Counted from the first letter of the stretch, positions 1 to 11,095 are shown. The stretch: DNA of 64,000 nt from Burkholderiaceae bacterium (GCA_035539635.1 DATLIE010000368.1:7669-71668); one strand, 5' to 3'. Numbers and translations are program-made. The notes: generated from the letters alone by a model not told the origin.

Positions 1-531
1 CATCTGCATCATCGGCGTCGGCAGCACGCCCAGGGCCAGCAGCGCCAGCGCTGCCGAGCCCGCCAAGCCATGCAGCATCCCGACCAGCATGCTTGCCGCC
101 GGCAGCCGATGGGCATGGCGATGCGGATCGCTCGCGTGGAGGCGCTTGGGCTCGGTCGCAGCGCGCGGGGTGTGCGAGTGCCCGTGAAAGTGCGGCGCTC
201 GGCCAGCATGGCCATGGCCGTGAAAGTGCATGCGCTCCTTGTACAAGCGCCATGCCAGCCGCGCGCCGAGCACGATCAGCAGCACACCGACGGCCTGCTC
301 GAAGCGCAGGGCCCATTGCGACGGAATCACCCAGCCGAGGCCAGCCACTGCAGCAGCCACGACGAGCAGCACCAGCGAGTGGCCCAAGCCCCAGGCGGCG
401 CCCAGACGCAGCGCGCGCGCCAAAGAGTGCTCGCGCGTGGCCAGCGTCGCAACGGCGGCCAGATGGTCGGCATCGGTGGCGTGCTGCATTCCCAGCAGCA
501 ACCCCACCCCGAAAATCATGAGGATGTCCAT
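1..531 (-). CDS. Nickel/cobalt transporter (NiCoT/UreH-like), partial; C-terminus lies beyond the left edge
   Basis: Own translation from the ATG at 529-531: MDILMIFGVGLLLGMQHATDADHLAAV... It carries the HX4DH metal-transporter signature, a His-rich loop (HFHGHGHAGRAPHFHGHSH...HRHAH) and a later MLHGLAGSAA segment. It is missing from the ORF track because it runs off the window. It sits 7 nt downstream of hypB. Confidence 0.7.
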   Translation of the reverse strand, partial: MDILMIFGVGLLLGMQHATDADHLAAVATLATREHSLARALRLGAAWGLGHSLVLLVVAAAVAGLGWVIPSQWALRFEQAVGVLLIVLGARLAWRLYKERMHFHGHGHAGRAPHFHGHSHTPRAATEPKRLHASDPHRHAHRLPAASMLVGMLHGLAGSAALALLALGVLPTPMMQM

Positions 532-538
532 GGCGGAC

Positions 539-1492
539 TCAGGTCAGACTCGGCCGCACCAACGGGTCGATGCGGCGCATCGCGCGCAGCCAGCCGTACC
601 ACTCGTCGAGCCCGTCGCCCTGCGTGGCCGACAGGCGCAGGCAGCGGATGGTCGGGTTGACGCTGCGTGCATGGCGCTCGGCGCGGCCGACATCGAAGGC
701 CACGTGCGGCGCCAGATCCATCTTGGTCGTGATCATCAGGTCGGCGCTGCGGAACATGTGCGGGTACTTCAGCGGCTTGTCGTCGCCCTCGGTCACCGAC
801 AACACCACCACGCGAGCCCGCTCGCCGAGGTCGAACAGCGAGGGGCAGACCAGGTTGCCGACGTTCTCGACGAAGACCACGCTGCCCGAAGCCGGCGCCA
901 GGCGCTGCACCGCGCGCTCGATCATGTCGGCTTCAAGGTGACAGCCCGCGCCGGTGTTGATCTGGATCGCCGCCGCGCCGGTCTCGCGAATGCGGTCGGC
1001 GTCGGCGCTGGTCTCCTGGTCGCCCTCGACCACGCACATCGGAAACTCGCCGCTCAGGTCACGCAGCGTGCGCACGAGCAGGGTGGTCTTGCCAGAACCC
1101 GGGCTGGACATCAGGTTGAGCGCAAGCACGCCGCGGCCGGAGAACCAGCCGCGATTGCGCTCGGCGATGCGTTGGTTCTTGTCGAGCAGAGCCGTCTCCA
1201 GCGCCACCAGCTCGGCCGGGGCGTCCTGCCGATGAGCGGCATGCGAGTGCCGGTGACCATGGTCATGGTCGTGGTCGTGGTCGTGGTCGTGGTCGTGGTG
1301 CTCGTGCCCATGATCGTGCACGTGGGCTTGCATGACCGGGTGAGCGTGCGTACTGCCAGCCTGGCCATGCCCCTCGTCCGGCGCGTGTCGATGGCGCACG
1401 TGCGAACCGTCCGCGAGTACATGCTCGTGCTCGACGGTGTCCCCTTCGACGCGAACATCAGCCTTGCTGTTGCAACCACAGACTACGCACAT
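539..1492 (-). CDS. hypB: Hydrogenase nickel-incorporation GTPase HypB
   Basis: The internal start gives MCVVCGC, the canonical HypB N-terminus. It also has a long His/Asp-rich tract, the P-loop GSGKTTLL and ENVGNLVCP. The start overlaps the hypA stop. Confidence 0.95.
   Translation of the reverse strand: MCVVCGCNSKADVRVEGDTVEHEHVLADGSHVRHRHAPDEGHGQAGSTHAHPVMQAHVHDHGHEHHDHDHDHDHDHDHGHRHSHAAHRQDAPAELVALETALLDKNQRIAERNRGWFSGRGVLALNLMSSPGSGKTTLLVRTLRDLSGEFPMCVVEGDQETSADADRIRETGAAAIQINTGAGCHLEADMIERAVQRLAPASGSVVFVENVGNLVCPSLFDLGERARVVVLSVTEGDDKPLKYPHMFRSADLMITTKMDLAPHVAFDVGRAERHARSVNPTIRCLRLSATQGDGLDEWYGWLRAMRRIDPLVRPSLT
1260..1300. repeat. Hexanucleotide tandem repeat (GTCGTG/CACGAC, about 5-6 units) encoding the (HD)n tract of HypB
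   Basis: Direct reading of ggtcgtggtcgtggtcgtggtcgtggtcgtgg; the protein reads HDHDHDHDHDHDHGH. Coordinates are approximate to within a few nt. Confidence 0.7.
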
Positions 1493-1830
1493 GTTTCCAC
1501 CTCCATCGCCTTGACGTTTAGTTCCTGGCCGGTGCGCCGACGCCAGCGGGTCGCGCCACAGTGGGCGCAAGCCGCGGGCATGGCCTCGCCGTCCGCACAT
1601 TCGGGCGTGCCACAGTCCTCGCAGAGCCAGCCTGGCGAGACCTCGACGATCTCGAGTTCGGCCGCCTCGAGCGCCGTCCCCTGCCGCACGACGCCGAAGC
1701 AGAAGCGCACCGAGTCCGGCAGCAGGGCCGTCTGCGTGCCGATCTCGAGCCACACCTTGCGCACCGGCCGGCCTTGTGCGGCCTCGGCGACGATGGCTAC
1801 GAGGTTGCGCGTGATGCCAAGTTCGTGCAT
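1483..1830 (-). CDS. hypA: Hydrogenase nickel insertion protein HypA
   Basis: MHELGITRNLV... N-terminus and two CxxC pairs (CEDCG, CAHCG). About 115 aa. 10-nt overlap with the hypB start. Confidence 0.9.
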   Translation of the reverse strand: MHELGITRNLVAIVAEAAQGRPVRKVWLEIGTQTALLPDSVRFCFGVVRQGTALEAAELEIVEVSPGWLCEDCGTPECADGEAMPAACAHCGATRWRRRTGQELNVKAMEVETCA

Positions 1831-1847
1831 GGGCCGGTCCCGGCGGA

Positions 1848-9550: not shown

Positions 9551-9769
9551 TCAGTTGTACTTGAGGTTGCGGAACAGCCACGGCATCAGCGCGCCGCCGA
9601 TGGCGCCACCGGCCACCATGCCGAGCCACGGGTTCACCCAGCCGAGCGCGAGCATCAGCAGTAGTGACACGGCAAAGCCGGCGCCGAGCTGGCGGAAGAA
9701 CGCCCAGTTGTCGCGGAACAGCTTGCCGCCGACGAACAGCTTGATCGAGTTGAGCAACATATCGAACAT
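9551..9769 (-). CDS. Small membrane protein (72 aa), unknown family
   Basis: AAGGAG lies 5 nt upstream of the ATG. The central segment is hydrophobic (FAVSLLLMLALGWVNPWLGMVAGGAIGGALMPWLF). Co-directional within the operon. Confidence 0.5.
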   Translation of the reverse strand: MFDMLLNSIKLFVGGKLFRDNWAFFRQLGAGFAVSLLLMLALGWVNPWLGMVAGGAIGGALMPWLFRNLKYN

Positions 9770-9788
9770 CGTTTGCTCCTTGCCGCGT

Positions 9789-9980
9789 TCAGCGCAAAGC
9801 GTGCATCAGCACGGCCACCACCGCGGCGGGGACCACTGCGGCGAGGCCGAAGAAGGCGCCCATGAAGGCGGCCATCTCGTTGCCCATCGCCTGGCCGCCG
9901 AGCTTCACCCCGGTTGCGGCGCCGCCTGCCGCGCCCGCCAGCACGGCGGCCAAGCACATCAATACGAGGGTCACAGTCAT
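9789..9980 (-). CDS. Small Gly/Ala-rich membrane protein (about 63 aa), unknown family
   Basis: MTVTLVLMCLAAVLAGAAGG...FFGLAAVVPAAVVAVLM. GGAG lies about 8 nt upstream of this internal ATG. The track ORF begins earlier, at 10040. Confidence 0.45.
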   Translation of the reverse strand: MTVTLVLMCLAAVLAGAAGGAATGVKLGGQAMGNEMAAFMGAFFGLAAVVPAAVVAVLMHALR

Positions 9981-10036
9981 CGTCTGCTCCATGTTGATCA
10001 ACGGTTCAATTGGTGGTCCTGAAGCCCGAGTTCTGG

Positions 10037-11095
10037 TCAATGCCCGGTGGGCCCGGCATCGCCGGGAACGCGTGAGGCGCCGAAGTCGGCGTGCGAGGCA
10101 TCGATGCCGGCGAGCGCGTCGGCCACTGTGGCCGCAGCATCGTCAAGGCCCGCGGACTGAAAGATTCGTTGCGCCTCCCGATACAACGCACGCGCCTTCG
10201 CGGTGTTGCCTGGGTTGCCCAGCTCGGGGTGCTCCGGGTCGTCCGGCAGGTTGAGCAGGGCATTGGCCTTGTTGGCCGCCGTGTTGGCGTACTCCACCGG
10301 CATGTCGCGCGGGTTGCGCACCTTCAAGGCCTCGTCATACGCCTCCACTGCACGCAGGAGGTTGGCCACCGGATGGCTGCTCGGAGCGTATTGCAGCGCA
10401 TTGCCGAGGTTGTTCTGCGTCATCGCGTACTCGCTGGGGTGGTCCACCAGCGTCACGATGCCAAGCACCTCCTCGAACGACTGCACGGCGAGCGCCTCGC
10501 GCATTCGCGCACGTTCGTCGGTGGCGGGGATCGAGAGGTAGGCGATCGCCAGGTTGTTGTGCAGGATCGAGAACTCGCGTGGCCAGGCTTGTTTGGTGAA
10601 CACGCGCAGGGCGCGGTGGTAGTGCGCGATCGCCTCCTGGATCGTCGCCCGGTGAGCAGCGCAAAGAGTCTGGGTCACCAGGCCCAGGTTCATGTCGAGT
10701 TCGGCCACCTCTTCGGCCAGGCCATGGGTGGCCAGGTCGGCGCGAGCGGCCTCGAAACAGTCGCGTGCCGATTCGAGTGCGGCGGTACCGCCATCGGGCA
10801 AGGTCTGGTAGGCGGTGCCCTGGCGGGCACGAATGCGTGCCGCCAGCAGCGCGAACGTGGGTGGCACCAGCGCCAGTGCACGCTCGTACAGCGCTACCGC
10901 GTCGTGCAACTGGCGCGGCGAGCGCGGCTTGATCTGCAGACCGCGGGCGATCTCCATCAGCATCTCGGCCCGTTCCTCGGGTGCGGCGTCGCCCTCCTCG
11001 GCCAAAGCCAGCGCCGATTGCACCTCGGCGTCGGCCACCGTGAAGTGGTCTCGACCATTCGGCCTGCCCGACTCAGGCCCCGTGCTTGTCTCCAT
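10037..11095 (-). CDS. TPR-like helical-repeat protein, first gene of the hyp operon
   Basis: Repeated A-x-x-x-Y-x-x-AL helical-pair pattern (AVALYERALAL, AIAHYHRALRV, AVEAYDEALKV, ARALYREAQRI). AAGGA precedes the ATG at 11093-11095. Confidence 0.65.
   Translation of the reverse strand: METSTGPESGRPNGRDHFTVADAEVQSALALAEEGDAAPEERAEMLMEIARGLQIKPRSPRQLHDAVALYERALALVPPTFALLAARIRARQGTAYQTLPDGGTAALESARDCFEAARADLATHGLAEEVAELDMNLGLVTQTLCAAHRATIQEAIAHYHRALRVFTKQAWPREFSILHNNLAIAYLSIPATDERARMREALAVQSFEEVLGIVTLVDHPSEYAMTQNNLGNALQYAPSSHPVANLLRAVEAYDEALKVRNPRDMPVEYANTAANKANALLNLPDDPEHPELGNPGNTAKARALYREAQRIFQSAGLDDAAATVADALAGIDASHADFGASRVPGDAGPTGH

Follow-up and report, generated by a model that had tools for sequence, protein, structure and literature searches.

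Linkage of a thirteen-gene hyp operon from a Burkholderiaceae bacterium to group 2a [NiFe]-hydrogenase genes in near-identical metagenome assemblies

Gene content of the maturation operon

The window analysed here is a 64,000-nucleotide stretch of DNA from a Burkholderiaceae bacterium (GCA_035539635.1, DATLIE010000368.1:7669-71668), whose first 11,095 positions very probably hold the half of a group 2a [NiFe]-hydrogenase gene cluster devoted to maturation and accessory functions, a so-called extended hyp operon. Open reading frame (ORF) listing, translation and Pfam/NCBIfam scans revealed thirteen genes in positions 1-11095, all co-directional and on the minus strand. Pfam matches and motif reading identified among them a complete set of hypF, hypC, hypD, hypE, hypA and hypB with intact catalytic motifs. 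The gene hypF (5042-7471) codes for an 809-residue carbamoyltransferase with an acylphosphatase domain, two zf-HYPF domains, YrdC and Kae1-like domains, and two CxxC-x18-CxxC fingers. Downstream of it lie hypC (4770-5051), coding for a 93-residue chaperone that begins with MCLGIPG (Pfam HupF_HypC, E = 4e-22), and a gene for a 245-residue GmhA-like protein with a SIS domain (4036-4773; SIS_2, E = 1.4e-19). These are followed by hypD (2900-4039; 379 residues, Pfam HypD, E = 9.5e-151), which retains CGGHTH and GPGCPVC, and by hypE (1848-2903), whose 351-residue product carries AIRS and AIRS_C domains and ends in PRIC. HypA (1483-1830; 115 residues, Pfam HypA, E = 4.8e-25) is a nickel metallochaperone with an MHE start and a CxxC...CxxC arrangement, and HypB (539-1492; 317 residues, cobW/HypB/UreG domain, E = 5.4e-21) is a GTPase with MCVVCGC and GSGKTT motifs and a His-rich nickel-storage tract. 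The last reading frame, coding for a NicO-family nickel transporter, is cut by the left end of the window (1-531); the complete 236-residue protein is encoded on contig L002, a near-identical assembly described below, and matches Pfam NicO (E = 6.7e-9).

Directly upstream of hypF lie five conserved ORFs coding for a TPR-like protein, two small proteins with two transmembrane segments, a NifU-like protein and an NHL-repeat protein. The outermost one codes for the 352-residue TPR-like protein (10037-11095), an orthologue of Nostoc alr0691 or ORF1 of the extended hyp operon, for which Pfam TPR matches are sub-threshold (E of about 0.01). It shares 50-51% identity with the product of the gene adjoining hupSL in Nostoc and Lyngbya loci, and 54-64% with its counterparts in more than 40 proteobacterial and Nitrospira loci. 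The small hydrophobic protein s63 (9789-9980) has two predicted membrane helices and is asr0689-like (NCBIfam asr0689_fam, E = 2.3e-8, under the family cut-off); tblastn found it kept in 18 of 43 loci. The second small hydrophobic protein, s72 (9551-9769), occupies the asr0690 position and has tblastn matches in 38 of the 43 loci, including Nostoc and Calothrix at 37%. An ORF at 9655-9957 was rejected as a gene; it has no family match, and the gene calls of related contigs show the true small genes to be 9789-9980 and 9551-9769, in another frame. Next comes a 294-residue HucE-like iron-sulfur protein (8646-9530) combining a NifU domain (Pfam, E = 2.9e-20), in which the CxxC reads CQSC, with a C-terminal Rieske domain (E = 1.6e-18) bearing the motif CAH-x16-CPHH (CxH-x16-CxxH). 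The 392-residue NHL-repeat protein (7471-8649; Pfam NHL, E = 5.8e-26) is an alr0693 orthologue that shares 50-63% identity with its homologues in related loci and 51-52% with those of Lyngbya and Limnoraphis.

Seven of the junctions are start/stop overlaps, of 4 nucleotides between the HucE-like and NHL genes (GTGA), 1 nucleotide between the NHL gene and hypF (TGATG, 7469-7473), 10 nucleotides each for hypF/hypC and hypA/hypB, and 4 nucleotides each for hypC/SIS, SIS/hypD and hypD/hypE. The remaining intergenic gaps measure 56, 19, 20, 17 and 7 nucleotides. Seven overlaps and gaps of at most 56 nucleotides fit a single transcript, and the thirteen genes are predicted to be co-transcribed.

We calculated dN/dS ratios by the Nei-Gojobori method against contig L171, which is about 92.5% identical at the nucleotide level. 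Twelve genes gave values of 0.036-0.146 (0.065 for the TPR-like gene, 0.14 for s63, 0.073 for the HucE-like gene and 0.11 for the SIS gene) and s72 gave 0.42, with dS ranging from 0.10 to 0.48. No stop codons occur in the orthologues of the thirteen genes. All thirteen genes are therefore under purifying selection, and the operon is maintained rather than decaying. A first-pass annotation, made from the DNA alone, had described thirteen co-directional minus-strand genes running from a TPR-like gene to a nickel transporter, seven overlapping junctions, a set of gene identities with intact motifs, and an operon maintained by selection. The ORF and domain scans agree with it, the junction coordinates are exactly as it gave them, every motif that it quoted was read directly in our translations, and the dN/dS values bear out its view of selection. 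The hidden Markov model searches that it proposed for the accessory proteins returned NifU, Rieske and NHL matches, the TPR match being sub-threshold and the asr0689_fam match under the family cut-off.

Structural genes beyond the left end of the window

Scanned for motifs in six frames, the full 64 kb contained neither of the large-subunit motifs RxCGxCxxxH and DPCxxCxxH, no credible small-subunit motif and no endopeptidase motif. An exact search with 50 nucleotides of the window's left end gave no match in species-representative genomes. The exact HypE protein sequence is encoded on 16 public contigs. Contig L002 (ENA ERZ27256788, 30.7 kb) differs from window positions 1-12903 by 7 mismatches, and L003 (JGI 3300015615) is 99.75% identical to the window. 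A third assembly, L220, came from an exact-match scan for the window's first 40 nucleotides in JGI metagenomes; it covers window positions 1-1299 and shares 99.87% identity with L002 over 8,456 nucleotides. These are three independent metagenome assemblies, 99.7-99.95% identical to the window.

In all three, the DNA to the left of position 1 continues with the rest of the nicO gene, a gene for a 506-residue sigma54 activator and a gene for a 257-residue HAD hydrolase. Beyond the HAD gene lies a convergent operon on the opposite strand, coding for a hydrogenase small subunit (320 residues), a large subunit (532 residues), two small proteins with four cysteines each (p104 and p109, of 104 and 109 residues), a HycI/HupW-type endopeptidase (150 residues; TIGR00072, E = 6.4e-36) and a 108-residue protein, p108. 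The protease, large-subunit and small-subunit genes lie about 2.9, 4.2 and 5.8 kb left of position 1, respectively. No terminator was found between the convergent operons of L002. The arrangement is the same throughout the window's clade (L008-L013, L169-L174). The operon is thus physically linked to hupS and hupL of group 2a and to a hupW-type protease gene in the three near-identical assemblies, and the window's own genome probably continues as its 99.9%-identical relatives do. The headline of the first-pass annotation, a complete maturation operon with no hydrogenase or endopeptidase in view, holds literally for the 64-kb window; it fails for the operon, since the window is cut inside nicO, 3-7 kb short of the structural genes. 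Structural genes and an endopeptidase downstream of the nickel transporter, which that annotation had said would make this an ordinary cluster in an unusual order, are essentially what the near-identical assemblies contain. The locus is an already-known cluster type with a rearranged gene order.

The large subunit carries RACGICGASH near its N-terminus and DSCLVCTVH followed by a 16-residue extension, and the small subunit begins at the conserved core, without a twin-arginine signal. Compared with all PDB sequences, the two subunits match Huc of Mycobacterium smegmatis at E = 1.6e-193 and 1.5e-156, and the next hydrogenase class at 1e-60 and 1e-34; for the large subunit, Huc is the top match by more than 130 orders of magnitude, with about two thirds of the residues identical over residues 7-516. 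The large subunit shares 77-81% identity with HupL of Nostoc, Calothrix, Lyngbya and Crocosphaera (species-representative genomes) and 79-97% with homologues from Burkholderiales, Nevskiales, Nitrospira, Bradyrhizobium and Acidobacteria. Given Huc as the best PDB match and the 77-81% identity to cyanobacterial HupL, the linked enzyme is, by sequence, a group 2a (Huc or cyanobacterial HupSL-type) [NiFe]-hydrogenase. Huc-type enzymes have been reported to oxidise atmospheric H2.

Gene order, regulation and comparison with known clusters

We searched for all 21 cluster proteins in 80 loci by tblastn and found three layouts. In more than 40 proteobacterial, Nitrospira and acidobacterial loci, the genes run in one direction in the order sigma54 activator, small subunit, large subunit, p104, (p109), HupW, p108, TPR, s63, s72, HucE, NHL, HypF, HypC, SIS, HypD, HypE. 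A sister clade (L015, L020/L176) instead begins with the hyp block, which continues through HypB, NicO and the sigma54 activator to the small subunit, the large subunit and the following genes up to p108. The window's clade (L002, L003, L008-L013, L169-L174) has this second layout with the structural block inverted behind the HAD gene. In cyanobacterial loci, orthologues of the TPR, s72, NifU and NHL genes (37-52% identity) adjoin hupSL.

The nearest described counterparts of the operon come from cyanobacteria. In Nostoc PCC 7120, asr0689-alr0693, which code for two small proteins with two transmembrane segments, a TPR, a NifU-like and an NHL protein, are co-transcribed with hypFCDEAB as an "extended hyp-operon" described in 2008 (PMC2408588). 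The order in N. punctiforme, Nodularia and Lyngbya is ORF1(TPR)-ORF2-ORF3-ORF4(NifU)-ORF5(NHL) (PMC2408588). The same five upstream ORF types are found in the window as in Nostoc PCC 7120, N. punctiforme and Lyngbya majuscula (PMC2408588, PMC3126725), and the order TPR-ORF2-ORF3-ORF4-ORF5-hypF-C-D-E-A-B of N. punctiforme and Lyngbya equals that of the window. The cyanobacterial operon, like the system studied here, is associated with a group 2a hupSL. In contrast to the cyanobacterial loci, the window has the GmhA-like SIS gene between hypC and hypD, its NifU protein adds a Rieske domain, nicO and the sigma54 activator gene are appended, and the host is betaproteobacterial. Control of the Nostoc operon is of the NtcA type, whereas a sigma54 activator is encoded at the cluster of the window.

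Group 2a clusters carry hucE and genes for NHL-repeat proteins (PMC7784904; PMC6036681), and Huc activity in M. smegmatis depends on HucE, a NifU-like protein that ends in a Rieske motif (PMC6883350). The Huc cluster of that species, hucM-hucS-hucL...hucE, encodes the closest solved relatives of the linked subunits (PDB 7UTD/7UUS; PMC10017518, PMC6883350). The NifU+Rieske architecture of HucE is shared by the window protein, and Huc, like the linked enzyme, is cytosolic and lacks a Tat signal. No HucM homologue was detected in the linked cluster, where the large-subunit gene is instead followed by those of the two small 4-Cys proteins. The predicted regulation by sigma54 also distinguishes the linked cluster from that of M. 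smegmatis; sigma54 is not known from actinobacteria.

The group 1h (AH/Hof) cluster of Cupriavidus necator H16 on pHG1 has an identical HypF-HypC-SIS-HypD-HypE-HypA-HypB order with 45-73% protein identity, a NifU-like protein and, as in the system studied here, a nickel transporter nearby. However, no homologues of TPR, NHL, s63, s72, p104 or p108 were found there by tblastn, there is no Rieske part in its NifU protein, it has DUF5947 and DUF6084 genes instead, and the structural subunits are only 25-31% identical to the window-linked ones. Of the group 1h accessory set (an HhyE-type NifU without Rieske, DUF5947 and DUF6084), tblastn matched only the NifU part, along with the hyp and SIS genes. 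Proteobacterial, Nitrospira and acidobacterial 2a clusters (Methylibium, Bradyrhizobium, Nitrospira; L017-L085) contain an orthologue of every window gene in the same order, including the SIS gene between hypC and hypD, and the sigma54 activator gene and a −24/−12 element precede hupS. They form one co-directional cluster with the structural genes first, whereas the clade of the window has the hyp block first, the activator gene at its 3′ end and the structural block inverted behind the HAD gene. The first-pass annotation had stated that a TPR, NHL and NifU/Rieske set accompanies group 1h and 2a enzymes and not the group 1 enzyme. This proved right for group 2a and for the exclusion of group 1; the resemblance to 1h extends only to the hyp/SIS order and a NifU-like domain.

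The SIS gene, which overlaps both hypC and hypD by 4 nucleotides, lies between them in 39 of 41 loci, being missing only in two cyanobacterial ones, and is also found between them in the C. necator 1h cluster. Alignment to GmhA structures showed that its product keeps the GmhA motifs GNGGS..DA.H.A.E, STSGNS and RIQE.H, and it scores 150-154 bits against the gmhA equivalog models, whose cut-offs are 209-276. The literature searched gave no description of its function. We tentatively propose that it could be a dedicated, previously undescribed maturation factor of O2-insensitive 2a/1h hydrogenases working with HypC and HypD, a doubtful reading that nevertheless fits the overlaps with hypC and hypD, the position between them (39 of 41 loci, plus the C. 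necator 1h cluster), the kept motifs and the dN/dS of 0.11. One possibility is that it would supply or process a sugar-phosphate-derived precursor in aerobes without HypX.

The sigma54 activator has a receiver-like domain, a sigma54-interaction domain and a Fis-type helix-turn-helix. On L002 its gene occupies 13080-14600 on the plus strand, about 0.2-1.7 kb left of window position 1, and its start overlaps the nicO stop by 4 nucleotides. Of 61 non-cyanobacterial loci, 50 have a GGCAC-N5-TTGC-type element (at most 2 mismatches) 55-125 nucleotides ahead of the small-subunit gene, compared to a 6% match rate in random 250-nucleotide segments. In the window's clade, the −24/−12 element reads AGGCACGC(G/C)(C/T)CATGCG and is located 72 nucleotides upstream of hupS; on L002 it lies at 19703-19718 on the minus strand, about 6.8 kb left of position 1, and the homology between L002 and the L008 clade begins exactly at this element. 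This conserved −24/−12 promoter is most likely the one from which the activator, whose gene closes the maturation operon at its 3′ end, drives the structural operon. For the maturation operon, the best candidate is a sigma54-type −24/−12 element, GGGCACGCACATTGCG, at 14029-14014 on the minus strand, 74 nucleotides upstream of a gene for a 427-residue protein. Because only four matches of the same stringency occur in 16 kb, counting both strands, this putative promoter is suggestive only.

Genes upstream of the operon and the role of the locus

No Pfam domain matches the 427-residue protein (12672-13955, minus strand), which ends in an invariant 4-Cys domain of 75 residues, C-x2-C-x9-C-x14-C-x2-W with 'HRKWCDLPEL'. 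It has this domain in common with p104 and p109, the two small proteins found after the 2a large subunit in more than 50 loci. All 95 homologues found are annotated at most as 'hypothetical protein'. In L218 a homologue is the first gene before TPR-s63-s73-HucE-NHL-HypF, and in L217 another lies directly after the large-subunit gene. The 427-residue gene probably belongs to the same hydrogenase system as an upstream member, extending the cluster beyond 11095, and the 4-Cys family may provide 2a hydrogenases with a metal-binding partner module. The relatives at 92% identity have kept no more than the final 111 codons of the gene (L169 8774-9109, plus strand), as a short ORF behind one of 306 residues, so the long form is not conserved even within the clade. 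The AlphaFold model of the 427-residue protein is confident (pLDDT 87.6); Foldseek searches with it against the PDB returned nothing below E = 0.001 and only weak Roadblock/LC7-like matches for the N-terminal half. Neither p104 and p109 nor their profile had a PDB or Pfam match, and an assignment of the two as HucM or as a high-potential iron-sulfur protein (HiPIP) was dropped, the HiPIP-like cysteine spacing having found no support. The 427-residue protein was likewise rejected as HucM, which in mycobacteria is encoded upstream of hucS and forms a coiled-coil (PMC10017518).

Between the operon and the 427-residue gene lies a remnant of a group 1 hoxK-hoxG-hoxZ operon on the plus strand (11465-12179), detected by tblastn with C. 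necator proteins at 67-82% identity. It comprises HoxK residues 2-16 (11465-11509), HoxG residues 80-182 with an in-frame stop (11497-11805), HoxG residues 204-248 in a different frame (11858-11986) and HoxZ residues 177-244 with a stop and frameshifts (11978-12179), forming a mosaic in which the HoxK N-terminus is joined to internal HoxG pieces and the HoxZ C-terminus through two large internal deletions. At this site relatives retain another part of HoxK (residues 45-76), implying that an intact group 1 operon once stood there and was deleted piecemeal. A frameshifted HATPase_c histidine-kinase remnant follows at 12238-12580 on the plus strand (E = 4e-18 with two frames joined) and may be the residue of a HoxJ-type sensor kinase. 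HoxM, HoxL, HoxO and HoxQ gave no significant tblastn match in window positions 11000-13000, where only the HoxK, HoxG and HoxZ fragments were matched. The hoxKGZ remnant is real and unrelated to the operon. Wrecked structural genes had been noted in the first pass at 11199-12182; the remnant exists, with the limits given here. That no hypX was visible to it also agrees with our results, as neither hypX nor the Hox-specific accessory genes (HoxM/L/O/Q/R/T/V) were found in 1-11095.

The window is chromosomal, containing genes for cytochrome bd oxidase, fructose-bisphosphate (FBP) aldolase, phosphoglycerate kinase, AzlCD, fmt, HprK and LeuS. LeuS is 82% identical to that of one Burkholderiaceae soil metagenome-assembled genome and at most 71% to everything else, which places the host in a Burkholderiales lineage. 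Megablast of positions 1-11200 against plasmids gave only partial matches of 73-76%, to pHG1 and an Azospirillum plasmid; the region is therefore not a known plasmid. Cytochrome bd oxidase subunits I and II are encoded at 15724-18101, and a class II FBP aldolase, a HAD phosphatase and phosphoglycerate kinase at 18213-21368, all on the minus strand. A Calvin-cycle/hydrogenase island was considered and rejected, as only FBP aldolase, a HAD hydrolase and phosphoglycerate kinase lie nearby and the rest is ordinary chromosome. The related contigs preserve synteny between the bd oxidase region and the hydrogenase cluster.

At the DNA level, the hydrogenase cluster shares 92.7% identity with contigs assigned by binning to Hydrogenophaga, Curvibacter, Lysobacteraceae and others, and these differently binned contigs are 98-99.9% identical to one another. 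The identity of about 92% to L008-L013 and L169-L174 covers window positions 27-11498 and 14429-18176, the latter including the bd oxidase genes. On L002, a serine recombinase gene lies next to hupS. The pattern suggests recent horizontal transfer of the cluster; alternatively, the contigs may be mis-binned.

Several points weigh against assigning the operon to a group 2a cluster. The window ends inside nicO, and the linkage to structural genes rests on near-identical, not identical, assemblies. The −24/−12 element of the window's clade carries 3 mismatches (AGGCACGCGCCATGCG). Directly upstream of the TPR gene we found no sigma70 match and only sigma54 matches with 3 to 4 mismatches, and the nearest promoter candidate lies upstream of the 427-residue gene, 1.6 kb away across the hoxKGZ remnant.

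Taken by itself, a 64-kb window with no structural-gene or protease motif could point to an orphan maturation operon serving an enzyme encoded far away in the genome, and such separation occurs naturally, the hyp genes of Trichodesmium being 3.8 Mb from hupSL (PMC2408588). We nevertheless consider this highly improbable, as three assemblies 99.7-99.95% identical to the window put the structural genes at 3-7 kb to the left of position 1 and all clade members share the linked arrangement. The heavily deleted group 1 operon and the frameshifted histidine-kinase fragment immediately upstream might also suggest that the hyp genes are a relic of a lost hydrogenase, about to follow the hoxKGZ remnant into decay. 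Against this stand the thirteen intact reading frames with their catalytic motifs, the dN/dS values of 0.04-0.42 relative to a contig with dS of about 0.1-0.5 and the intact 2a structural genes that adjoin the operon in relatives, and decay is, in our judgement, extremely improbable.

Hyp proteins can be shared between enzymes, and the group 1 remnant lies divergently and directly upstream of the TPR gene, with a different HoxK fragment in its place in relatives. The hyp genes could thus have served the group 1 enzyme first, or as well, the association with group 2a being secondary. However, the accessory genes of the C. necator group 1 enzyme, HoxM, L, O, Q, R, T and V, are absent here, and selection on the operon was not relaxed after the loss of the group 1 genes. 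Moreover, HypF-HypC-SIS-HypD-HypE with the five upstream ORFs is the 2a order, found by tblastn in more than 40 loci, most of them without a second hydrogenase. Service to a group 1 enzyme is accordingly very unlikely.

For the group 2a enzyme, maturation is proposed to begin with nickel import by NicO, followed by nickel storage and insertion by HypA and the His-rich HypB. HypF and HypE would make the cyanide ligands from carbamoyl phosphate, and HypC and HypD would assemble Fe(CN)2CO and pass it on to the large subunit. The HycI/HupW-type protease encoded with the structural genes would then cut the 16-residue C-terminal extension after His516. These NicO, Hyp and protease steps follow the established Hyp pathway. 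The HucE-like NifU+Rieske protein is expected to be needed for activity, either in iron-sulfur maturation of the small subunit or as a high-potential electron relay, and the role of conserved co-factors would fall to the TPR-like and NHL proteins, both small membrane proteins and the GmhA-like SIS protein. The biochemical role of each accessory protein is put forward here on the strength of homology and gene context.

The operon is neither an orphan nor a relic, and the apparent lack of a hydrogenase comes from the cut of the window. The locus is a further example of a Huc-type system, in an uncultured Burkholderiales lineage, with a convergent layout and a sigma54 activator gene ending the maturation operon. 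For knockouts, good targets are the conserved but unstudied genes for the SIS, TPR and NHL proteins, both small membrane proteins and the 4-Cys domain family.

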